DNA of 64,000 nt from a phage, in assembly GCA_018865545.1 (NCBI GenBank), contig GCA_018865545.1_3633.1; one strand, 5' to 3'. Positions 7,469-24,492 of this stretch are shown one piece after another (the stretch's first letter is position 1; every line of letters begins with the position of its first letter). Under the pieces are notes generated by a model. The model saw nothing but the letters and a program-made list of their open reading frames with translations, searched no databases and had not been told where the DNA came from. The translations under genes were made by a program, and so were the position numbers.

Positions 7469-7647
7469 AGGTTAAAATGATTTCTGATTTTTCGGATGTT
7501 GATGGATATCCAAAAACAGGAGATATTCTTGAAGTAAGAGAAGAAATATTTAATGGTAGTTTTCTTGAGTGTTACTCTTGCGAATGGAATGGGAAAAGAC
7601 TGGATATCTATCCATACGAATGCGAAGAGGTATCAGACAATGCTTAA
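7465..7647 (+). CDS. hypothetical protein
   Basis: 60-aa ORF. Confidence 0.35.
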   Translation: MKVKMISDFSDVDGYPKTGDILEVREEIFNGSFLECYSCEWNGKRLDIYPYECEEVSDNA

Positions 7648-8161
7648 GTATAAAGTTGGTTGCTTAATAGAGGCAGCACTTAAAAGGGATGTTAATGTGA
7701 TAGCTCATGGTTGTAATACATTTTGCACCATGGGGTCTGGAATTGCTAAAGAAATAAAGAATACATTCCCAAAAATGTATGCTGAAGATTTAAAGACAGA
7801 GAAAGGTGATCGAACAAAACTGGGCAGTTATACTTGGGTTGTCATGAACGAAGGTAAACTGGCTGGTTTTAATCTGTACACACAATACGGTTATAATGGG
7901 CGTAGAATGGGTGTGAGGGATCTGAATTATAACGCCCTTTACGATTCCTTAGCAGCAATGCGAGATTGTTTGCAAAGGCACACAGATGGCTTTATGTCTG
8001 ATTATAAGATCGGGCTGCCAAAAATAGGTGCTGGACTAGCAGGTGGGGATTGGAAAATCATAGAAACTATGATAGAATCTGTTCTCCATGATTGTGATGT
8101 GACAATTTATGTCTTAAATGAAGAGGAGATCCCCGATGGCAAAAGAGAACATGCATCCTGA
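7640..8161 (+). CDS. macro-domain (ADP-ribose binding/hydrolase-like) protein
   Basis: VNVIAHGCNTFCTMGSGIAKEI and GLPKIGAGLAGGDW resemble the two glycine-rich macro-domain loops; start moved to ATG 7640. Confidence 0.5.
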   Translation: MLKYKVGCLIEAALKRDVNVIAHGCNTFCTMGSGIAKEIKNTFPKMYAEDLKTEKGDRTKLGSYTWVVMNEGKLAGFNLYTQYGYNGRRMGVRDLNYNALYDSLAAMRDCLQRHTDGFMSDYKIGLPKIGAGLAGGDWKIIETMIESVLHDCDVTIYVLNEEEIPDGKREHAS

Positions 8162-8321: not shown

Positions 8322-8704
8322 TGGAAAGTAAATCTGTAACAGGCGTATCTAAAGATACTTATGTCTGTGGGAAGAGATACGCTGGTATCCTGTTTGGTGC
8401 TGAACCCTATTTCGGTTTTGGTTATACAAAAGATGTGCGTTGTATCTGCGGATACTTAGCAGATGACCTCAAAAAGCGTGGATTTAGCGGTTCTAATATC
8501 AGGACTTCTGTTGTCGAAAGTCTGATTATGCACGATGGGGAAATCTATGCTATTACGATGAACAGCGCCTATCGCTTAGGTAGCCTCCAATTACAACATT
8601 TTATCTCCAGTCCTGTATGGAGTCAGGAGATCACGAAACTTCTCGCCCAAGCAACTCTTGGTGTGACTTTTATTAATAAGGAAGATAGTAATGCAAGCAA
8701 CTAA
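8318..8704 (+). CDS. hypothetical protein
   Basis: start at ATG 8318 preceded by GGAGG. Confidence 0.4.
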   Translation: MMESKSVTGVSKDTYVCGKRYAGILFGAEPYFGFGYTKDVRCICGYLADDLKKRGFSGSNIRTSVVESLIMHDGEIYAITMNSAYRLGSLQLQHFISSPVWSQEITKLLAQATLGVTFINKEDSNASN

Positions 8705-9725
8705 GTACCCAAGCACTAGTCAATTTCGCAATGTTATCCGAGCGGTTAATGACCGTCTGACTTATGATGGTCGTGATGAGAATGGCAATATAAAGCGTAA
8801 GGTTGCCTCTCCAGACCAATATCTCATTCCTTATGTAGGAACAGTTAAAATTCACGGGACTAATTGCCGTGTAGTCTTTAATTCTGAAAATGAGGTTGTA
8901 TACCAGTCCAAAGAACGCGTTTTGTCTCTGGAAGAAGATAATTATGGGTTTATGGCCTTTATGGTTGAAAAAGACCCTAAAGGCCTGTTGGAGCAAGTCA
9001 AACAGATCTGCGAAGATCGTGGTATTGAATTTAAGTTCCCAGTAGAAATCGCTGGGGAATTTGCAGGGAAAGGTATCCAGAAAGGTGTTGCGGTATCTGA
9101 AATCATGCCTTTCTTTACTATTTTCCGTGTGGCAGTAGGAAAAGAGAATGACCATCGGAAATGGTTAGCTTTAAACGATATTCTTGGCATTGGATTACCA
9201 GAACAACGTATTTATAATATTTTAACTTTTGGTAAGTGGGAACTGGATATTCCTTTTAACATGCCAGAGACAGTGCAATCAGAAATTGCACAGATTACCG
9301 AAGGTGTGGAAAAAGAGTGTCCAGTAGGTAAATATTTTGGCGTATCTGGTGTTGGTGAGGGTGTGGTATGGACACCTAAAGATCGCCACTTGGCACATGT
9401 TTCTGCACTTTGGTTTAAAGTGAAAGGGCAAAAACATTCTGTTTCTAAAGTGAAAACCCTGGCTGCTGTTGATCCTGTGAAACTGCAATCTATCAAAGAT
9501 TTTGTGGAGTATGCAGTTACTGAGAACCGTTTACGACAAGGGTTGCAAGAAATTGGATTGGACATCGCATCTCTGGGGGCATTTATCGCATGGGTTAACC
9601 GCGATATCAACAAAGAAGAAGCAGATGTGTTAGAAGCCAATTCTCTTTCTATGAAAGACGTGGCAAAATTTACAACAAATAAAGCCCGTAGTTGGTACAT
9701 GGAACAACTTAACGAGGTGTCTTGA
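8691..9725 (+). CDS. RNA ligase (Rnl2-like nucleotidyltransferase)
   Basis: motif I VKIHGTN (lysine nucleotidyltransferase), EGVVW (motif IV-like), FKVKG (motif V-like). Confidence 0.7.
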   Translation: MQATKYPSTSQFRNVIRAVNDRLTYDGRDENGNIKRKVASPDQYLIPYVGTVKIHGTNCRVVFNSENEVVYQSKERVLSLEEDNYGFMAFMVEKDPKGLLEQVKQICEDRGIEFKFPVEIAGEFAGKGIQKGVAVSEIMPFFTIFRVAVGKENDHRKWLALNDILGIGLPEQRIYNILTFGKWELDIPFNMPETVQSEIAQITEGVEKECPVGKYFGVSGVGEGVVWTPKDRHLAHVSALWFKVKGQKHSVSKVKTLAAVDPVKLQSIKDFVEYAVTENRLRQGLQEIGLDIASLGAFIAWVNRDINKEEADVLEANSLSMKDVAKFTTNKARSWYMEQLNEVS

Positions 9726-9910
9726 TGGCTTTAATTGTTTCTACGACACACACAACTGTAGAACGTGGTATGTTAAAGGCAAAGTGTGACACAATTATTT
9801 TTGAAGATGAAGAACAGGGCAGAAAGTTTATTGAAGACAATAAAACATTTGTATACTCTGTTCAGAAAGCACCTATTGTTAAAGAGAAACAAAACAATGA
9901 TTACGATTAA
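9722..9910 (+). CDS. hypothetical protein
   Basis: 62-aa ORF. Confidence 0.35.
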   Translation: MMALIVSTTHTTVERGMLKAKCDTIIFEDEEQGRKFIEDNKTFVYSVQKAPIVKEKQNNDYD

Positions 9911-10241
9911 TGGTAATACAATTTCTGGAAACTATACCAATGGTAGTATCTCTATCACCACTAAGGGTGATAATGTCTATATCAATGGTGATTTAGTTCA
10001 TACCACAAACGATAAAAACATCACAGTTATTATCAAAGGTGATGCTAAAGAGGTACGTACAACATCAGGTGGTATCAATGTCTATGGAAATGTCTCTAAT
10101 GGTGTGATCTCAACATCTGGGGATATTAATGTTGAGAAAGATATCTTAGGCAATGTATCTTCGGTGTCTGGTGATGTTTGCGCAAATACAATCCATGGAA
10201 GTGTAAACACAGTGTCTGGAGATATTCGTTTCCATCGCTAA
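9897..10241 (+). CDS. small beta-solenoid-like repeat protein
   Basis: 115 aa from ATG 9897; periodic G-x-(I/V)-x-V / SGD(I/V) repeats. Confidence 0.4.
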   Translation: MITINGNTISGNYTNGSISITTKGDNVYINGDLVHTTNDKNITVIIKGDAKEVRTTSGGINVYGNVSNGVISTSGDINVEKDILGNVSSVSGDVCANTIHGSVNTVSGDIRFHR

Positions 10242-10245
10242 CAGA

Positions 10246-10270
10246 AAGCCCCTTTATGGGGCTTATTTGT
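10246..10270 (+). terminator. rho-independent terminator
   Basis: stem AAGCCCC/GGGGCTT, loop TTTAT, then ATTTGT. Confidence 0.5.
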
Positions 10271-10282
10271 CTGGAGTTAGTT

Positions 10283-10801
10283 TTGAAAATAAGATCTTTA
10301 TTATTTGCAGTTTGCTGTGCACTTTCTCTGTCTATTACCCCTGTTCTAGCCAAAGAAAGTGCAAAGAAGCCCCAAGTTCTTCACATTTGCAAGAAGAATG
10401 ATACAGAGCTTAATATTCTTGCCTGTAACTTGTATAAAGAGGGAAGAGGAGAAGGTGATTATGGAATGATGGGTGTCGCTTTTGTCACATTGAATAGAAA
10501 AGATGACAAGAATTTCCCGCATACTATCAAGAAAGTAGTTTACCAGCCGGGGCAATTCTCTTGGACATTCGGTGGGCAATCCTTTAAAGTCTATGAAAAG
10601 GATAGGTGGTTAAGAGCTAAATTTTATGCTAAAATCTTGATGAGATTGCATAAAGACCACAAAAGTTTATACAAGGCTCTTGACTACACAAAATCAGCAA
10701 CGTACTATCATGCAACTACTGTTAGGCCATCTTGGGCAAAAGTCATGGTGAAAACAGTGAAGGTTGGGAATCATATTTTTTACAAGCATCCTGACGCATA
10801 A
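10283..10801 (+). CDS. secreted SleB-like cell wall hydrolase (candidate endolysin)
   Basis: signal-peptide-like N-terminus (KIRSLLFAVCCALSLSITPVLA); KEGRGEGDYGMMGVAFVTLNR and QPGQFSW match the SleB/Hydrolase_2 signature; start placed at TTG 10283 after GGAG. Confidence 0.6.
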   Translation: MKIRSLLFAVCCALSLSITPVLAKESAKKPQVLHICKKNDTELNILACNLYKEGRGEGDYGMMGVAFVTLNRKDDKNFPHTIKKVVYQPGQFSWTFGGQSFKVYEKDRWLRAKFYAKILMRLHKDHKSLYKALDYTKSATYYHATTVRPSWAKVMVKTVKVGNHIFYKHPDA

Positions 10802-10821: not shown

Positions 10822-12822
10822 ATGATTATTCAAAGATCTGACAACAAAGTTCAGGTAACTGGGAACGTAGAAAGATACCAAGCATCAATTGCAATGAATC
10901 CTGAGACTTTCAGTATTCTTATCGATGGAATTTATAAAGATAAACCTTTGGCAGCAGTACGAGAGCCTCTCTTCAACGCTGTAGATGCTCATACAGAGGC
11001 AGGGTGTTCTGATAAACCCATCATCATCCACTCACCAACAGACTTGGAACCTTGGTATTCTGTTAAGGATACAGGGTTAGGTATGGATCATGAGATGGTA
11101 ACACGTACATTCATGATGATTGGTGAGTCCACAAAAAGAAACAGTAATGATCTGATTGGCGCGAAAGGTATTGGGTCAAAAGCGCCTCTTGCAGTAACAG
11201 ATATGTTCACAGTTGTTTCTGTTAAAGATGGAGTGAAAACAACATACTCTGTTCACAAAAACAGCGGAATACCAGAGGTTGTACCTTTATTCTGTTGTGA
11301 AACAACAGAGGAGAATGGTGTAGAGGTTAAATTTAACGTAAACACTTGGGAAACAGGAGCTTATCGACAGGCTATTGTAAAATGCCTTCGTTATGCCAAA
11401 TTCCCATATATTATTAACGATCCTTTTGTTAAAACTCAGATTGAAGATCGCACTTATCCTGTTCAGTATCGGTATGAGGATGAGGAGACTGGCTGGGTTC
11501 TTGAGATGTATAGTAGCATTTCAAGAAACGCTGATAGTGTTGTCATCATGGGGCAACAACCATATCTCTCTGATTATCTCTCTACTCGCAAAGAACTGCC
11601 TATGATGACGGTATCTATCCCTATTGGGGATTGTAATGTAGATCCTGGCAGGGAGTGGACAGTAGAAGGAAAGAATGACGGGGGATTTCGTGATAAACTT
11701 GAAAGTTTTGTGACGAAAGCTATCCGACTTCGCGGAGAAGAAATCACAAAAGAATTAAGCGATCTGCCAACTTTAAAGGCAGTTCTTGATCATATGAAGT
11801 TTATTGGCGGTTACTTCGCTACAAAGTACGGTGCTGCTTTTATTGCAAATAAGTTCAAGAATTATACTGATGGTTCTTACATAGATTACTGTGAAACATA
11901 TGGTGGCGAAGGCTCACGCCGTGGTAAGGATGAGCGTTATTCATACGCAGAGTTGATGAATGGTCATCCACTGGTTTACAATGATGATCACAAGTATGTG
12001 CGCTCTAAATGTAATTGGCTTGCAGAGAAGTTCGGTAAGAGATCGTTTATAACCGATGCTGATTACGCTCTGTCCTTATACAGTGATAAATTCTTTGAGG
12101 GGATGATTTTCAAGTTATCTGAACTTGAAAAACGACCAGTGCAAAAAGCAGATAAAAAGTATGGTGGCTATGGTTATTACGAACCGGGTCATAAAGTTTG
12201 GATAATCAACCAAGATGGCTCCGTAGATGTAACCCGCATTTCCCGTGCTCAGTTTGAAGATATTGAGGCGGCTATGGTCTACTGGGGTGGGCAGGTGAAA
12301 GGATTATGCCCGTTAGGATACGTTTCCAATCTTAGAACAACTTGGAGAAAGCAACCGCCAACATTTCTTAAGAATCTTGGTGTAGCTGGTAAGTTATATA
12401 TTGTGCCTTTAAACAGATCAAGTTGGCTGCCAGATGAGGCACGGGTTATAACTGAGGAGGATATTCATGCTCTTGCAAAAACTAACCTTCTTGAATATCA
12501 TTTATATCAAGAAGTGGGGAAAGATCATGAGTATCATAACATTGTTAAAGAGCTTAGCTATTTTGGTGTGATGGTAGCTAGTTTCCCAAAATGGGAGATG
12601 AAGGTAAACATACCCAGTTATTGTTCAGTTCCTGGCTACGAAGATAGTCGTGAGAAAGCATTAGGGATGATAGAGGCCAAGAAGAGAATTGGGAAAAAGC
12701 TACTACAGATTAAGAAAGATCGTTACCCATTGTTAAAATACATTAATATTAGGCATTTCAATACTCCAGAGATGCTAGAGTATCGTAAATTTATTGACAG
12801 CAAAGGAGAAAAAGGTGAGTAA
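10822..12822 (+). CDS. GHKL (Bergerat-fold) ATPase-like protein
   Basis: N-box EPLFNAVDA, G1 box DTGLGM, G2-like GAKGIGSKA; 666 aa, rest unassigned. Confidence 0.5.
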   Translation: MIIQRSDNKVQVTGNVERYQASIAMNPETFSILIDGIYKDKPLAAVREPLFNAVDAHTEAGCSDKPIIIHSPTDLEPWYSVKDTGLGMDHEMVTRTFMMIGESTKRNSNDLIGAKGIGSKAPLAVTDMFTVVSVKDGVKTTYSVHKNSGIPEVVPLFCCETTEENGVEVKFNVNTWETGAYRQAIVKCLRYAKFPYIINDPFVKTQIEDRTYPVQYRYEDEETGWVLEMYSSISRNADSVVIMGQQPYLSDYLSTRKELPMMTVSIPIGDCNVDPGREWTVEGKNDGGFRDKLESFVTKAIRLRGEEITKELSDLPTLKAVLDHMKFIGGYFATKYGAAFIANKFKNYTDGSYIDYCETYGGEGSRRGKDERYSYAELMNGHPLVYNDDHKYVRSKCNWLAEKFGKRSFITDADYALSLYSDKFFEGMIFKLSELEKRPVQKADKKYGGYGYYEPGHKVWIINQDGSVDVTRISRAQFEDIEAAMVYWGGQVKGLCPLGYVSNLRTTWRKQPPTFLKNLGVAGKLYIVPLNRSSWLPDEARVITEEDIHALAKTNLLEYHLYQEVGKDHEYHNIVKELSYFGVMVASFPKWEMKVNIPSYCSVPGYEDSREKALGMIEAKKRIGKKLLQIKKDRYPLLKYINIRHFNTPEMLEYRKFIDSKGEKGE

Positions 12823-13807
12823 TCCTTTATTCATGTCACGTCGTGAAGCTCGTGAATACGCTAAGAAAAATAATATGGTGGTTGTTGATCGTGGTCTAAA
12901 TGTTCTTAAACGCTGGACAGTTGCACCCAAGAAAGGAATGCCGACAACCAAAAAGGCTAAGGAAGATCCTGTAGGTATTATGAAGCCAGTGCATACTCTT
13001 GCACAACCAATTGTCCTTGTTACCCAAGACAATATCCATATCACTTTGTTAAATGGTGAACAATATACTCTAAATAGTAGCAGCCCCATCTTCAAAGAAG
13101 TTGGTGTTATCCTTTGGACAGGAGGAATAGATGCTGCTGTACAACGTATTTTGGAAGAGAAAGAAGCAGAAAAGAAAAAGACCATTGATTTTGGTGATAA
13201 TTTAGTATTGATAGATAGTGCTTTATATTGGCACGGTCAAAAACAGGAAAGCAGTATTGCTAAACGAATCATTAAAGATATTGAGAATGATTGCTTTGAC
13301 GAACGATATGTCAAATTCATGCAGAAGTTGCTACACAACCCGTCGTATGCTTCTGTTAAAATGCTTTATGATTTTGTAAAACATAATGATCTTGAGATCC
13401 TTGAAAACGGAAATATTAAGGCATACAAGAAAATTAAGATAACTGTAGATGGCCCACGAGATTGTCATACAGGTAAAGTTCCTAATTATAAAGGGCAAGT
13501 GATTTCCATGCCACGTAATATGGTTGAGGATAATCCCAATAGAACATGTAGCCAAGGTTTGCATGTTGCATCTATTGACTATGCCGCTACCTTTGAGAAG
13601 ACTTCAAGGGCACTTGTAGAAGTATCTGTGGATCCGGCAGATATTGTCAGTGTCCCTTATGACTATAACCAGAAAAAATGCCGTTGCTGTCGTTATGAAG
13701 TTCTGACAGGAACACCAAAACCAGCAGGTGCACCAGATATTATTGTCATTGGTGTACAGGGTAAAATTCTTGAAGAGATTTATCTACAAGAATCTAAGGA
13801 GGACTGA
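12815..13807 (+). CDS. hypothetical protein
   Basis: start at GTG 12815 after AAAGGAG (ATG 12833 is an alternative). Confidence 0.45.
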   Translation: MSNPLFMSRREAREYAKKNNMVVVDRGLNVLKRWTVAPKKGMPTTKKAKEDPVGIMKPVHTLAQPIVLVTQDNIHITLLNGEQYTLNSSSPIFKEVGVILWTGGIDAAVQRILEEKEAEKKKTIDFGDNLVLIDSALYWHGQKQESSIAKRIIKDIENDCFDERYVKFMQKLLHNPSYASVKMLYDFVKHNDLEILENGNIKAYKKIKITVDGPRDCHTGKVPNYKGQVISMPRNMVEDNPNRTCSQGLHVASIDYAATFEKTSRALVEVSVDPADIVSVPYDYNQKKCRCCRYEVLTGTPKPAGAPDIIVIGVQGKILEEIYLQESKED

Positions 13808-15111
13808 TGTCTCAATACGGGGTTGGCGTTGAAGAAGCTCTTGGCGCTATAATGTCCGGTGAAAATGTGTTTATCAGTGGTTATGCAGGTGCTGGAAAGA
13901 GCCATACCATAAAAACTATCCAATCCTTATACGCAGGTTCAGTCTTGACAGTGGCCCCTACAGGGGCTGCTGCCATTAATGTGGATGGTATGACGGCACA
14001 CAGAGCTTTCGGACTTTCATTAGGCGTGTCCACTAAAAAAGATGCAGAAGAGATAAAGGCAAAGGCTAAGAAGTTGCTTAAAAGTAAAGCACTGAAGATT
14101 CTTATTATTGAAGAGATAAGTATGTTCAGGGCAGACAAACTTTGGGAAATGGACATGAAATGTCGTCTGGCACGTAAAAAACCTAAAGAGCCTTTCGGTG
14201 GTTTGCAGGTGTGCATGTTCGGGGATTTCTTACAGAATCCACCTGTTTTGAAAGGTGAAGAAAAAGAGATCTACTACCAGTTCCACGACACAGAACTTTG
14301 TTGCTTTTCTAAAACATGGAAAGAATTGAACCCATATCCTGTATTTCTTGATAAAATATACAGGCAAAGTAGTGTTCATTTTTCAACACTTCTTAATTGC
14401 CTTCGCAAGGGAGAGCGTATTCCAGAGATTGTTGAGTTTATGAATACTTATTGCTACAACATGGGAAAACCCTTGGATGCTATAACAATAACCTCAACAA
14501 ACGCGGCAGCAGACAAAATAAACAAAAAACGTTTTGATGCAATACCTGGAATCCCAACAGTTTACAAGGCAAAAAAGACAGGGCAATTTAACCAGACACC
14601 TGTACCTGAAGAGTTATATCTGAAAGAGGGGGCGCAGGTGATGATTACTGTCAATGACCCCAGAGGTCTGGATGAACCAAGTTATGTGAATGGTTCCCGT
14701 GGGGAGATTGTTGAACTACGTAAATACAGTGTTAAAGTCCGCCTTGAGAATGGTGATATTGTTGACGTAGAACCTTATGTGTGGGAAAATGTTGAGTATA
14801 ACCCCATAAAGGTGAAAAACCCAGATGGTACAATAACTGAAGAAATTGAGAAGATTATCATTGGTGAGTACAGGGCTTTACCGATTCGTCTTGGGTGGGC
14901 TGTTACAATACACAAAGCACAAGGATTAACATTACCGGAAGTTAATGTTGACTTTGGCAATGGGACTTTTGCACCGGGCATGGCATACGTGGCTTTTAGC
15001 AGAGCAACAAGTGCAAAAGGATTAAGGTTATTACGTAGGATCAGGGATAAAGATATTATCGTTGATCAACGTCTTGTTAAGTTTTATGAAGAGACTTTCC
15101 CTGGTAAGTAG
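13807..15111 (+). CDS. Dda/Pif1-like SF1B DNA helicase
   Basis: Walker A GYAGAGKSHT, Walker B ILIIEEISM, C-terminal VTIHKAQGLT motif; 434 aa. Confidence 0.75.
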   Translation: MSQYGVGVEEALGAIMSGENVFISGYAGAGKSHTIKTIQSLYAGSVLTVAPTGAAAINVDGMTAHRAFGLSLGVSTKKDAEEIKAKAKKLLKSKALKILIIEEISMFRADKLWEMDMKCRLARKKPKEPFGGLQVCMFGDFLQNPPVLKGEEKEIYYQFHDTELCCFSKTWKELNPYPVFLDKIYRQSSVHFSTLLNCLRKGERIPEIVEFMNTYCYNMGKPLDAITITSTNAAADKINKKRFDAIPGIPTVYKAKKTGQFNQTPVPEELYLKEGAQVMITVNDPRGLDEPSYVNGSRGEIVELRKYSVKVRLENGDIVDVEPYVWENVEYNPIKVKNPDGTITEEIEKIIIGEYRALPIRLGWAVTIHKAQGLTLPEVNVDFGNGTFAPGMAYVAFSRATSAKGLRLLRRIRDKDIIVDQRLVKFYEETFPGK

Positions 15112-15121
15112 GAGATAGCTG

Positions 15122-15547
15122 ATGGCCTCATATTCAAAAAGTGAACTTTTAAAGAAATTTAAAGCTGAATTAAAGGGTTGGTGGGATAATAAAGAATCTC
15201 ATCATGGTAAAGACACCACACATATCCAGATGGCATCGGTTGATGAAATGATGGCTGCATTAGGATATGCACCTCGTTTACTACCTAACTACCCAGATGT
15301 TAAGGATGGTCGTTTTGGATATTATCGTGTTTGGGGTTCTGAAAAACACCCTTTAAACCTGTCTTTTGAAGATGCTGTGTCACTTCATAATAATTGTGTT
15401 TGTAAAGCTCGTGTTTTAGCTCCTGACGCTATCAGCTTTGCTTTACGGAGTAAAATTGTACAACAGGTGGCTGTCCAGCGTTTGAAAGGTAAAGGTGAGA
15501 AAGGTCAGATCAAATCCCAGAAGCGTTGGATTAAATTCGAGGACTAA
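15122..15547 (+). CDS. hypothetical protein
   Basis: 141-aa ORF. Confidence 0.45.
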   Translation: MASYSKSELLKKFKAELKGWWDNKESHHGKDTTHIQMASVDEMMAALGYAPRLLPNYPDVKDGRFGYYRVWGSEKHPLNLSFEDAVSLHNNCVCKARVLAPDAISFALRSKIVQQVAVQRLKGKGEKGQIKSQKRWIKFED

Positions 15548-20284: not shown

Positions 20285-20478
20285 GAGAAAAAGAGGATAC
20301 GTGTAAAATATGATGAGTTAGCTATTCGTGTTGCCAAGGGGCTTGAGGGGTACATTCCCGCCAAGAGAAGCCCTTTGGCAAAGAAACATAAATCAAAAAT
20401 AGGTAGTTTTCCACATAATCTATAACCAACTAAGAGATGGGCGACGATACAGTCAAGCCCATCTTGAATAGGAGGAGT

Positions 20479-22515
20479 ATGAAAGGGCTTTTTGTCGGAG
20501 ATAACGAAGCTGACGGATTATTAGAAGAGGCAACTAAATATCACTGCACACTTTTTAAAGAATATGCTGTAAATAACTGGGTGTTGTTTCTCGATCCTGC
20601 TCACAAGGAATACCAGAGTGCAGTTAATTTTGCACGCAGCAAAGAAGGTGTTAATTTACGTATCCTTTCTTATGATGATTTTTACTCTTGGTTGCAGACC
20701 GAGCCAAGAGGGATAGCAATACATAACCTGTTCGGCTATGATTTACGTCTGTGGAAAAAACTTTCTGGGATTGAATATGACATGTTCAAAGACCCAAAAT
20801 GTATGGGGACGATAGGTAATAAACAGGTAAATCTTTACGACACTCTTTCAATGAGTCGTGTTCTTTACCCAGATCGCCCATTGCCTAATGGCTGCCCAGA
20901 TTCTGTATTGAACCCTGTAACAGGAAAACGTGACAGGGTTGGGCCACACGGCTTATTGGCATGGGGTTATCGTGTAGCAAACAAGAAAGTGCAGATTGAT
21001 GATTGGCGTAATCAGCCATTGTGGGAATATGTAAACCGTGTGTGGGAAGACGTTATCATTAACGAACTTGTGTGGAAAGCTCTTATTGATGAGTCAAATG
21101 GTACGCGATGGCCTGATGACAAGCAGTTTATGTACACTGATAAACCTCACGGGATGCACCAGATTAATTGGAAAAATGCATTACGTAGGAGAATGCTCAC
21201 AGACTATTTGATGATAGAGCAAGAAATACAAGGCGTATACTTTAATCGGGAGGAGGCAGAAAAATTAAGAGATCGCATAGATAAGATGATGCGAGAAATT
21301 GAAGAAGAGGTAGAACCACTTCTTCCAAAAAAAGAGATGACGAAATCTCAACAACCAAAATTCCCAGCTAACCCTTTTGACACAGCGGGTAATATATCTC
21401 ATCATGGGTGGAATTGGTTGGAATATAAACTTGGCTATCCTGTTAACAGGGAAGCTCTGGAGTTTAAAGCTCCACCAAAAACAGCTTTTAAGAGTAATGG
21501 GGATGTAAGTGCAGCAGGGGAGAGATATTGCATCCAGAATGGCATTGAAGATCCGGCTTTATACGGTGATTTCATTCGTTCCCAGCGAACCAAAGAGAAC
21601 ACACTCGAACCTTTACCGCCAGATCTTCTAGAGAAGGCTAAAGAAGACCTTCGAAACAGAAAAATGCCAGATTTAATGGTTCCAATGAAAATCTCTAATC
21701 AAGATGATATTAAAAAATATTTGATCAAAGATGCTGGTTGGAAACCTACACTGTGGCGTGTAAAAGATGTTACTAAGGATCAATTTAAAAAGACTCGTGA
21801 AGATTCTGAAATTGATGTACTAGTTAAGAAGTACATAGAAGAGTTGGCAGAGTCTGAGTATAAATCTCTTATTCTTGACTACCTTAATGATTCAGATGAG
21901 AAATTCAACATTTCAGAGCGTAAGTTTGACCATCGCCATGCATCTGAAAGGGGTTATTCAGAGATATTTAAGAAATTTCGGCGTAAAGCACGCCAGTTAC
22001 CGACATCTCCTCAATTAAAAGATAATTTTGGGCATCTGTGTCCAAATTTGGAGAAAATTGATGTGCATATGGCAAAACAGATTGTTAAGTGGCTATCACT
22101 TCGTAACAGGCGATCTGTTTTAGACCCAATGGATGAGGATAAGACGGATACAGGGTTATTAAATCACCCTCGTTTAGACATTGACGGAAAACTTCCAGCA
22201 CGTTTTTCTGGAATCACTAACACGGGCAGGTGCAAGCATACTGTTTGCGCAAACATGCCCAAGCCTGATCCGAAGGTTTTGTTGGGAAAAGAAATGCGGG
22301 GTCTTTGGACAGTCCCTGAAGGCTACTACCTGATGGGTTGTGATGGATCTAACTTAGAAGGTATGATTGCAGCGGCAGGGGCTTTTGAGTTTGATGGTGG
22401 TGAGTATTTACGTATCATGATGGAAGAGGATGCCCATGAACGAAACGCAAGAGCATACACAATAGCAGCAGGAAAGGAGGTAACACGCTCTGGAGGAAAG
22501 GGGGTTACGTATGGT
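20479..22515 (+). CDS. family-A DNA polymerase, exon 1 (3'-5' exonuclease to start of motif B)
   Basis: start ATG 20479 after AGGAGG; Exo I-like FVGDNEADGL; motif A-like CDGSNLEGM; ends ...RSGGKGVTYG, the first half of motif B. Confidence 0.75.
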
Positions 22516-23249
22516 TAATGATAGCCCCCTTACAAAGTAATTTGTAAGGTGCACCCATTGAATTGCTGGGAAGTCTGACCGAGTTATGTCGAAGATAATC
22601 AGCAGGTAAGCGAATGCTTCCCTCTTACAAAAGGAGGGAGAATATGAGTACATTTTGTTGTATAATCTGCGGTGAACAATGTGTTAAAACTGGTAAAAAT
22701 CAAAAAGTATGTCTCTCTGAAGGTTGTAGAAGAGAATATTCAAAGATAAAAACCAGAGAATATAGACGCAGAAAGGCCGAAAGAGAAAATAGGCTTGACA
22801 GAGTTGGCATAGGAAAAGGTGGTGGGCAGCCTCGTGGGAAATTGTCCAAATTTTATAAAAATGGCATATCGATGTTTCGTAAGTTATCCCCTGTCATAAA
22901 GGAACAGAGAAGATACTGTAATAGATGTAATAAAGATCTTCTTTATGCAGGTAAGGATGAGTGGTGCGTTCATCATATTGACCATGATAGGACGAATAAC
23001 GAAATAAGTAATTTTGAATTACTTTGTAAAAAATGCCATCAAATAGAACATAAATGTTGGGAAGCATTCGAAACTTCAACGACTAGCCGAAAGGCGTAGG
23101 GCCAAGCGGTGAGGGAAACCTCCAGTCTTTCAGACTGCCGAAGCAGTGGGCATCCTGAAAAGGATGAAGATATAGTCTGATCTGCATAGAAATATGTAGC
23201 AGTTCCTAAGAGGACGGGCATGGTGTAGCGAGCCATGTTGAACAATATG
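22516..23249 (+). mobile_element. group I self-splicing intron (IA-like) in the DNA polymerase gene
   Basis: exon 1 ends in U, intron ends in G; P-like AATTGCTGGGAAG (22561-22573), Q-like AATCAGCAGG (22597-22606), R-like TTCAACGACTAG (23075-23086), S-like GAAGATATAGTCTG (23166-23179); several GNRA-capped hairpins; HNH ORF between Q and R. Confidence 0.75.
22644..23099 (+). CDS. intron-encoded HNH homing endonuclease
   Basis: N-terminal Cys-rich zinc-finger-like region; C-terminal CVHHIDHDRTNN...CKKCH HNH motif; start ATG 22644 after AAGGAGGGAG. Confidence 0.7.
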   Translation: MSTFCCIICGEQCVKTGKNQKVCLSEGCRREYSKIKTREYRRRKAERENRLDRVGIGKGGGQPRGKLSKFYKNGISMFRKLSPVIKEQRRYCNRCNKDLLYAGKDEWCVHHIDHDRTNNEISNFELLCKKCHQIEHKCWEAFETSTTSRKA

Positions 23250-23882
23250 ATCATGTATGGAGCACAAGCTCCTAAGATAGCCGCAATGCTGGGTATCCCC
23301 CTTAATAGAGCACAGGCTGTAATAGACGCATTCTGGGATAGTAACTTCGGGTTGAAAATGCGTAGAGAGTGGTTAGAAAAATTCTGGGAGGCAAATGGGA
23401 GACGCTATATTCCAGGCATGGACGGGCGTAAAATTTGGACTCGTTCTAAACATTCTCTGCTGAATGCTTACCAACAAAACGGTGGTGCTTCATTGTTTGA
23501 CCTCATGGGAGTCCTGTTCCATTGGGAATTGGTGAAACGGGGATGGTACGACCAAGGTGTCAGGAGGGTTATCTACTACCACGATGAGATACAGGTACAA
23601 GTACCGGAAAGATTTAAATCAATAACGGAGCATTCTAACTTAGAGGCTGCACAAAGCTATGTAGACATGATGCTTGAAAAAGGCCATCGTTTCGACGGGC
23701 ATTATGTGAAAGCAGGTAAAGTTATTGTTGAACCTGATGTGTATGGGAAATACAGGATACTGCATTGCCCAGTAGGAGAGCTTGCAACAAAATGTGTAGA
23801 AAAAGCATCTAAGATAATGGGACTTCCCGTTTTAATTACAGGAGAATATCTTTGTGGATACACATGGGCAGATTCCCACTGA
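23250..23882 (+). CDS. family-A DNA polymerase, exon 2 (rest of motif B, motif C)
   Basis: begins IMYGAQAPKIA, completing motif B (K..YG..YGA...KI) when joined to exon 1; YYHDEIQV matches motif C. Confidence 0.75.
   Translation: MMYGAQAPKIAAMLGIPLNRAQAVIDAFWDSNFGLKMRREWLEKFWEANGRRYIPGMDGRKIWTRSKHSLLNAYQQNGGASLFDLMGVLFHWELVKRGWYDQGVRRVIYYHDEIQVQVPERFKSITEHSNLEAAQSYVDMMLEKGHRFDGHYVKAGKVIVEPDVYGKYRILHCPVGELATKCVEKASKIMGLPVLITGEYLCGYTWADSH
23854..23870 (+). repeat. direct repeat, copy 1 (flanks freestanding HNH gene)
   Basis: GTGGATACACATGGGCA; 14 of 17 nt identical to copy 2 at 24410-24426. Confidence 0.4.
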
Positions 23883-24492
23883 TGAAGTAGAGGAAATTTG
23901 GAAGGATATCGTAGGGTATCCTGATTATCAAGTAAGTAATTATGGAAATGTAAGATCTTTTAAATCAGGAATGTGGAAATACTTAAAAACTAAAAGTGAA
24001 AATTTATCTCCACAATGCTATCCGAGCGTGTGCTTGTACAAAAGGGGTAAAGATTCAGGGAAAAGTTTTTCAGTCCATAGACTTGTAGCGGAGGCTTTTA
24101 AAGAGCCTCCTTCTCCAGAATTGCAGAAAGAATGTAGAAAAACTGTGCTAGGAGTTCCAATTATAAACCACATAGATGGTGACAGACATAATAATAGGGT
24201 TGAAAATCTTGAGTGGTGTACCTATAGCCATAACAATACAGTGGCTTATGGTATGGGGAGAATCCAAAAATTTGGTGATGATTATCATTTATCTGTTCTT
24301 ACAAAGGAGAAAGTTTTAGAGATTGTACGGCTTATTGATTGTGGGATAACACACAAAGCTATTGCGGAACTATTCGGAGTTTCCAGAAATACAATATCTT
24401 CTTTAAATAATGGATACTCATGGTCACATGTCACAGGAAGACCTAAGAAAGTCCAGAAAAGAAGATCAAAAACAGACCCTATATCAGAGTAA
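23854..24492 (+). CDS. freestanding HNH homing endonuclease (NUMOD4-like N-terminus, HNH, C-terminal HTH)
   Basis: EEIWKDIVGYPDYQVSNYGNVRS; HIDGDRHNNRVENLEW; HTH-like ITHKAIAELFGVSRNTIS; GTG start overlaps the polymerase 3' end. Confidence 0.65.
   Translation: MDTHGQIPTDEVEEIWKDIVGYPDYQVSNYGNVRSFKSGMWKYLKTKSENLSPQCYPSVCLYKRGKDSGKSFSVHRLVAEAFKEPPSPELQKECRKTVLGVPIINHIDGDRHNNRVENLEWCTYSHNNTVAYGMGRIQKFGDDYHLSVLTKEKVLEIVRLIDCGITHKAIAELFGVSRNTISSLNNGYSWSHVTGRPKKVQKRRSKTDPISE
24410..24426 (+). repeat. direct repeat, copy 2
   Basis: ATGGATACTCATGGTCA. Confidence 0.4.

Follow-up and report, generated by a model that had tools for sequence, protein, structure and literature searches.

The stretch of phage DNA analysed here (64,000 nucleotides of contig GCA_018865545.1_3633.1, hereafter the window) carries three plus-strand genes that, according to its list of open reading frames (ORFs), are packed tightly within positions 10822-15111. 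By homology, we assign them to the classic phage gene pair rIIA-rIIB and to a helicase of the Pif1 family within superfamily 1B (SF1B), with protein lengths given in amino acids (aa):

10822..12822, plus strand: rIIA gene (666 aa, 76 kDa)
12815..13807, plus strand: rIIB gene (330 aa, GTG start)
13807..15111, plus strand: Pif1-family SF1B helicase gene (434 aa, ATG start)

The start of rIIB was set at GTG 12815 because of its start-site context and the annotation of the related Escherichia phage Av-05; this codon is preceded by AAGGAG and yields an overlap of 8 nucleotides with the rIIA stop. The helicase ATG at 13807, with AAGGAGG upstream, overlaps the rIIB TGA by a single nucleotide. A promoter and terminator scan returned no more sites than shuffled sequence, and neither a terminator-like site nor a promoter signal above chance between the three genes.

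Over 10822-15111, the DNA shares 97.9% identity with Av-05 (Vequintavirinae, Avunavirus), and the first 25 kb of the window are collinear with this phage at 96.4% identity. The matching Av-05 genes are named RIIA lysis inhibitor, RIIB lysis inhibitor, and helicase in RefSeq (YP_009111223, YP_009111222, and YP_009111221), and their products differ from the window proteins at 8 of 666, 6 of 330, and 5 of 434 residues, respectively. Gene order and overlaps are identical, and only point substitutions separate the three genes. The locus is already known, as RefSeq annotates all three genes in a phage of 98% identity. A first-pass annotation of the window, which missed the rIIA-rIIB pair, had described a large GHKL-type ATPase, a 330-aa protein of unknown kind, and a Dda-like helicase; we can confirm its sequence facts, and its interpretation is partly supported. 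The 330-aa protein exists and overlaps the gene upstream, but it starts at a GTG rather than an ATG and, as described below, is not an unknown.

Based on its sequence, the 666-aa protein is identified as rIIA. It matches PHROG 612 (“RIIA lysis inhibitor”) over aa 1-660 in the PHROG profiles (E = 9e-126) and rIIA of phage T4 (NC_000866) over aa 1-292 with 28% identity (BLASTP, E = 2e-21). With the same protein as query, tblastn finds matches in 2567 phage records from many genera, and nearly all of 40 sampled records are annotated as rIIA. No transmembrane helix is predicted for the protein (top 19-residue hydropathy score, 1.08), and it divides into three parts, the last of which was modelled with high predicted local distance difference test (pLDDT) values:

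10900..11421, plus strand: rIIA Bergerat (GHKL) ATP-binding domain (aa ~27-200)
11422..11685, plus strand: rIIA second domain, similar to a transducer or Hsp90 middle domain (aa ~201-288)
11686..12819, plus strand: rIIA C-terminal half (pLDDT mostly >90)

The Bergerat signature pointed out in the first-pass annotation (EPLFNAVDA at aa 48, DTGLGM at aa 83, and GAKGIGSKA at aa 113) falls on columns that are invariant in 96 rIIA homologues. Motif I reads E48-x3-N52-x2-D55, motif II D83-T-G-L-G-M, and the glycine-rich lid G113-x2-G116-x-G118, and the protein thereby shows the hallmarks of the GHKL superfamily, namely ExxxNxxD, DxGxG, a glycine-rich lid, and the Bergerat fold. Residues invariant in the 96 homologues are E48, N52, D55, D83, G85, K105, G113, G116, G118, and K120 in the ATPase part and M243, G244, Y248, G269, R277, and E278 in the second domain. 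The N-terminal GHKL ATPase is followed by a variable C-terminal region, as is typical of the rIIA family. Identity in the C-terminal half is 14 to 45% among 34 full-length homologues and 4 to 27% among distant homologues, and conservation of at least 97% in the 34 full-length homologues is seen only at F289, D388, Y635, P636, and Y654; this half of the protein evolves fast. No structural relative of the C-terminal 380 aa was detected.

Structure prediction bears out the Bergerat fold, with an ATPase domain like that of Hsp90, MutL, and topoisomerase II (topo II) and a transducer-like domain after it. The rIIA structure comparison gave these scores:

TRAP1: 17.6
GRP94: 17.2
Yeast topo II: 16.4
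T6 topo II ATPase domain: 16.0
MutL N-terminal domain: 14.7
Topo VI-B: 14.3
MORC2: 13.7

Histidine-kinase catalytic domains score approximately 8 or less against the rIIA model. Since the long alignments to GHL ATPases span not only the Bergerat domain but also the second domain (the “transducer” or Hsp90 middle domain), and since histidine kinases score low, the model places rIIA in the GHL branch, with a Bergerat fold and a second domain that carries a conserved Arg-Glu loop. A profile of the 96-homologue alignment also finds Hsp90-family chains as best matches among PDB sequences (TRAP1, GRP94, and HtpG; E = 7e-8), with the rIIA motifs aligned to the Hsp90 motifs RELISNxSDA, DTGxGM, and GxFGVG. 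Used as single sequences, rIIA and rIIB gave no match to the sequences of solved structures.

The first-pass annotation had seen no gyrase, MutL, or kinase output domain in the protein, and we come to the same result. A type II topoisomerase subunit (GyrB, ParE, or topo VI-B) was considered and rejected, as the ATPase and transducer regions alone match and Pfam shows no Toprim or topoisomerase domain. A MutL protein would have the C-terminal dimerisation/endonuclease domain MutL_C, and a histidine kinase would have a DHp/HisKA domain with its phospho-acceptor His before the catalytic domain; neither was found. Hsp90 proper was rejected as well, with the NCBIfam HSP90-family model remaining below threshold (32 bits; cutoff, 455 bits) and with N and M domains that are alike in structure but no match to the C-terminal domain. 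Compared to the GHL ATPases as a group, rIIA thus has sequence scores far under the family cutoffs and is without Toprim, the MutL endonuclease/dimerisation domain, a recognisable Hsp90 C-terminal domain, and the CW or coiled-coil regions of MORC.

The 330-aa protein is assigned to rIIB, again by similarity. It matches several PHROG “RIIB lysis inhibitor” families with E values from 4e-67 to 3e-26 (4e-67 to 2e-37 for families 609, 36818, and 3803) and T4 rIIB with 35% identity over 205 aa (BLASTP, E = 8e-40), and its homologues are tagged with Pfam PF26926 (Phage_T4_rIIB). No transmembrane helix is predicted. Two parts are distinguished:

13091..13705, plus strand: conserved rIIB core (aa 93-297; alignment including T4 rIIB and T4-like members)
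12815..12934, plus strand: rIIB N-terminal small module (aa 1-40; consensus SRxEARxYAKxNGxxVVDRG...RWxV)

Invariant residues of the core are M232-P233-R234, D239, C245-S246-x-G248-L249-H250, Y256, P274, S279, P281, Y284, K288, R290, C292, and Y294, which is the MPR...D...CSxGLH...Y...K.R.C.Y pattern of a T4 rIIB-like core, as in PF26926. An rIIB profile run against 1.84 billion cluster representatives recovers 8446 family members at E <= 1e-3, and in the 150 best matches listed the profile positions common to all (~130/160-388) correspond to the core. Family members carry extensions on either side of it, many of them unannotated C- or N-terminal regions of 150 to 300 aa. One member of 562 aa (P0379) has a Pfam EAD1 domain (“effector-associated domain 1”) directly N-terminal to the core, at 26.5 bits versus a cutoff of 24.2 bits.

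The N-terminal small module is present in one copy in the window and in two copies in relatives from Seunavirus and Vequintavirus (~400-450 aa). The N terminus of rIIB in T4 and T4-like phages matches HTH_7, HTH_28, and related helix-turn-helix (HTH) models, whereas window rIIB has no HTH match in Pfam and carries a beta-alpha-beta-beta module in place of the T4-type HTH. The AlphaFold model of rIIB reaches a pLDDT of 83.6 with an alignment of 35 sequences, which is shallow because a second large search, started from that alignment, yielded no more than four new T4-like sequences, its matches being taken up by close relatives. PHROG 609, a profile of 1055 positions, matches rIIA at its N terminus and rIIB at its C terminus, a possible hint of natural rIIA-rIIB fusions. 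However, the N4-like rIIB of 676 aa that was inspected has the rIIB core in its centre and no GHKL domain.

Similarity of the rIIB core to ADP-ribosyltransferases (ARTs) emerges as a weak lead. Its top match is BC2332, which is classified as SCOP d.166.1.6 within the ADP-ribosylation superfamily, and ARTs make up at least 15 of the top 46 matches, comprising PARP15, PARP13, PARP10, PARP4, TreX, TreTu, Tpt1, and Arr, as well as ArtA, Scabin, Vis, pertussis toxin S1, diphtheria toxin, CARDS toxin, and CNFy. However, the core has no invariant Glu, which counts against an ART with its H-Y-E or R-S-E triad. In addition, Foldseek returned no ART-type relatives of rIIB, a Pfam scan of all 35 rIIB family members gave no ART signal, the rIIB profile found nothing meaningful among PDB sequences, and no paper proposing an ART fold for rIIB was found in the literature. 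We therefore treat an ART fold of the modelled core as a lead and not as a finding, with only a small chance of being correct.

The third gene product is, judging by sequence, an SF1B helicase, as had been noted before, yet it appears to belong to the Pif1 family rather than to the Dda type. Pfam PIF1 (PF05970) matches with E = 1e-25 and 91.1 bits (curated cutoff, 25.9 bits), Pif1_2B_dom matches as well, and solved bacterial Pif1 helicases (8bns, 6s3p, and 5ftb) align to aa 15-427 with E values from 6e-68 to 9e-56. The similarity to bacterial Pif1 is full length, with the phage helicase being compact (434 aa) and without accessory domains. T4 Dda, in contrast, matches weakly and in the Walker A region only (BLASTP, E = 1e-3, 23% identity). 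Matches to PHROG helicase families lie at about E = 1e-103, among them PHROG 325 (“Dda-like helicase,” E = 2e-103), whose family name is broad. The helicase sequence ADKLWEMDMKCRLARKKPKEPFGGLQVCMFGDFLQNPPV resembles the Pif1 signature motif. Most likely, this helicase serves phage DNA replication or recombination.

Across phages, rIIA and rIIB are adjacent and co-oriented in the window, Av-05, Vequintavirus nomo, pSb-1, and a metagenomic contig (L007). The order SleB-type hydrolase, rIIA, rIIB, Pif1 helicase, and DUF7390 is kept in Av-05, nomo, and L007, with rIIA being 39% identical to window rIIA in nomo and 33% in L007, and with an 84-aa ORF lying between rIIB and the helicase in the latter. 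In the relative L008 (rIIA 31% identical), four small ORFs lie between rIIA and rIIB, and DUF7325 and lysozyme genes follow, with no helicase. The T4 rII locus is a two-gene module of the same order as in the window, without the Pif1 helicase that directly follows rIIB here; T4 dda lies ~7 kb away, with numerous genes between it and rIIA. T4 rIIA and window rIIA share the N-terminal GHKL ATPase of ~280 aa, and the C-terminal half of window rIIA is not alignable with T4 rIIA by BLASTP. In an N4-like phage, the gene after rIIB is a hypothetical one. What stays constant is the pair of rIIA and rIIB, with the helicase being a lineage-specific neighbour (Vequintavirinae) within a block of early and replication genes.

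Knockdown of the rII modules of T4, MM02, EdH4, SUSP1, and N4 by CRISPRi-ART lowered plating on cells that express lambda RexAB, and knockdown of rIIA or rIIB in these five phages had no effect on hosts without RexAB (PMC11879866). EdH4 is a Vequintavirus murica phage and thus falls in the subfamily of the window phage and in the species of nomo; there is thus experimental proof of the anti-Rex role for a collinear orthologue with 39% identity. Transposon sequencing in T4 agrees with an anti-Rex role of rII (bioRxiv 10.1101/2025.11.20.689424). A CARD/NLR-gasdermin defence system senses RIIB of T6, whose expression is toxic to E. coli (PMC10312443). RexA binds DNA and acts together with RexB, a membrane protein (PMC11077077).

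Taken together, the locus very probably represents the rIIA-rIIB module of an Av-05-like coliphage, with an anti-Rex role and a proposed clamp mechanism, next to a Pif1-family helicase that is coupled to it in translation but separate in function. The identity of the module follows from homology and its biological role from the literature on orthologues, and we infer the mechanism from fold and conservation only. Together, rIIA and rIIB would allow growth on hosts with RexAB-type abortive infection and be dispensable elsewhere; such systems, of which prophage-encoded lambda RexAB is an example, would otherwise depolarise the membrane and abort the infection. With its catalytic residues intact, rIIA is expected to be an active Hsp90/MutL-like GHL ATPase that binds ATP and dimerises via its N-terminal domains as an ATP-driven clamp, hydrolysis possibly being aided by the conserved R277-E278 loop of the second domain. 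The variable C-terminal half of rIIA would engage the target together with rIIB, which combines its changeable N-terminal module with the conserved core of ~200 aa and its invariant polar residues reminiscent of an active site. Most likely, the pair masks or remodels an infection-specific signal, or a sensor, that switches on RexA/RexB-like systems.

Several points weigh against this interpretation. For the window phage and Av-05, the putative anti-Rex role is transferred from orthologues of 28 to 39% identity, even for T4 the workings of rII at the molecular level have yet to be solved, and the proposed clamp rests on fold analogy. Pfam (24,736 models) and NCBIfam gave no significant match for rIIB in the copies searched, the empty Pfam result being due to the absence of PF26926 from that copy. 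For rIIA they gave nothing beyond the ATPase domain, which Pfam matches as HATPase_c_3 alone (aa 45-147, E = 1.2e-8). Finally, because window rIIB is without the T4 HTH, a mechanism that needs this DNA-binding domain cannot be universal.

Another possibility is that all three genes form one DNA-transaction machine, consisting of a GHL ATPase clamp of the MORC/MutL/topoisomerase type, an adaptor, and the SF1B helicase. The translational coupling of the genes, the gene order conserved through the helicase to DUF7390 in Av-05, nomo, and L007, the resemblance of the rIIA ATPase fold to topo II, MutL, and MORC, the HTH in T4-type rIIB, and the DNA binding of RexA all speak for it, and the first-pass annotation had proposed a DNA-transaction or anti-defence machine of all three. 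The helicase, however, adjoins rIIB only in Vequintavirinae and is not part of the module, and we consider a single machine quite unlikely. We give more weight, while still finding it doubtful, to the idea that rIIA is an Hsp90-like chaperone or clamp acting on a protein client, such as a defence sensor or a membrane protein, with rIIB as co-chaperone or adaptor and with no involvement of DNA.

Alternatively, rIIA and rIIB could mainly regulate the timing of lysis, together with the neighbouring SleB-type hydrolase. This would fit the “lysis inhibitor” annotation names, the historical rapid-lysis phenotype of T4 rII mutants, and the position of a Hydrolase_2 gene immediately upstream of rIIA in Av-05, nomo, and L007. 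On the other hand, the absence of any knockdown effect on RexAB-free hosts in the five phages (PMC11879866) argues against such a role, as does the T4 record, which ascribes rapid lysis to effects of specific prophages. The adjacency to the hydrolase is lost in L008, T4, and N4-like phages. In T4, moreover, it is the rI antiholin and the t holin on which true lysis inhibition depends, which also counts against a role in lysis timing, and we regard this explanation as very unlikely. The anti-Rex module with a separate helicase remains our preferred interpretation.

For the biochemical mechanism of rII, a locus of historic importance in genetics, two modest pointers emerge here, neither of which is specific to the genes of the window. 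One is the confident model of an Hsp90/MutL-like ATPase with a transducer-like domain in which all catalytic residues are invariant, and the other is the highly conserved, active-site-like rIIB core, shared by a family of >8,000 clusters at 50% identity. The locus itself matters little.

Directly upstream of rIIA, the plus-strand gene at 10256-10801 encodes the SleB-type cell-wall hydrolase (Pfam Hydrolase_2, E = 4e-21; NCBIfam spore_SleB, E = 5e-14), a longer TTG-started reading of which (10178-10801) begins with a hydrophobic N-terminal stretch. Its adjacency to rIIA is kept in Av-05, nomo, and L007 and lost in more distant phages. The sole strong plus-strand terminator-like hairpin near the locus (10246-10264; 7 pairs, 5 of them G-C, with a T-rich tail) lies in the short gap between the hydrolase start and the small gene before it. 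At 9900-10241 (plus strand), a small protein is encoded with a repetitive, glycine-rich, beta-helix-like sequence, SGDI/SGDV and NG repeats, and no Pfam match at E <= 0.001. A few genes upstream of rIIA, we also observe a macro-domain protein (7643-8161, plus strand; Pfam Macro, E = 1e-4) and an RNA ligase (8691-9725, plus strand; Pfam RNA_ligase, E = 2e-9). This pair, which could be a counter-defence cluster for RNA repair or ADP-ribose removal, precedes rIIA in L007 as well. Just downstream of the helicase, 15122-15547 (plus strand) encodes a DUF7390 protein (Pfam, E = 3e-26), found at the same position in L007.

Elsewhere in the window, the DNA polymerase region (20437-24492, plus strand) is apparently split into several ORFs (693, 215, and 212 aa). 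The matching stretch of Av-05 is annotated with three DNA polymerase pieces and four HNH endonucleases, and over the first 25 kb Av-05 exceeds the window by 843 bp, which suggests that the two phages differ in their homing-endonuclease insertions. A search of the 64 kb for tRNA genes found none. Genes lie on the plus strand before ~34 kb and on the minus strand after it, a switch that is visible in the GC skew, and G+C content is locally higher (0.449) at 28-30 kb.

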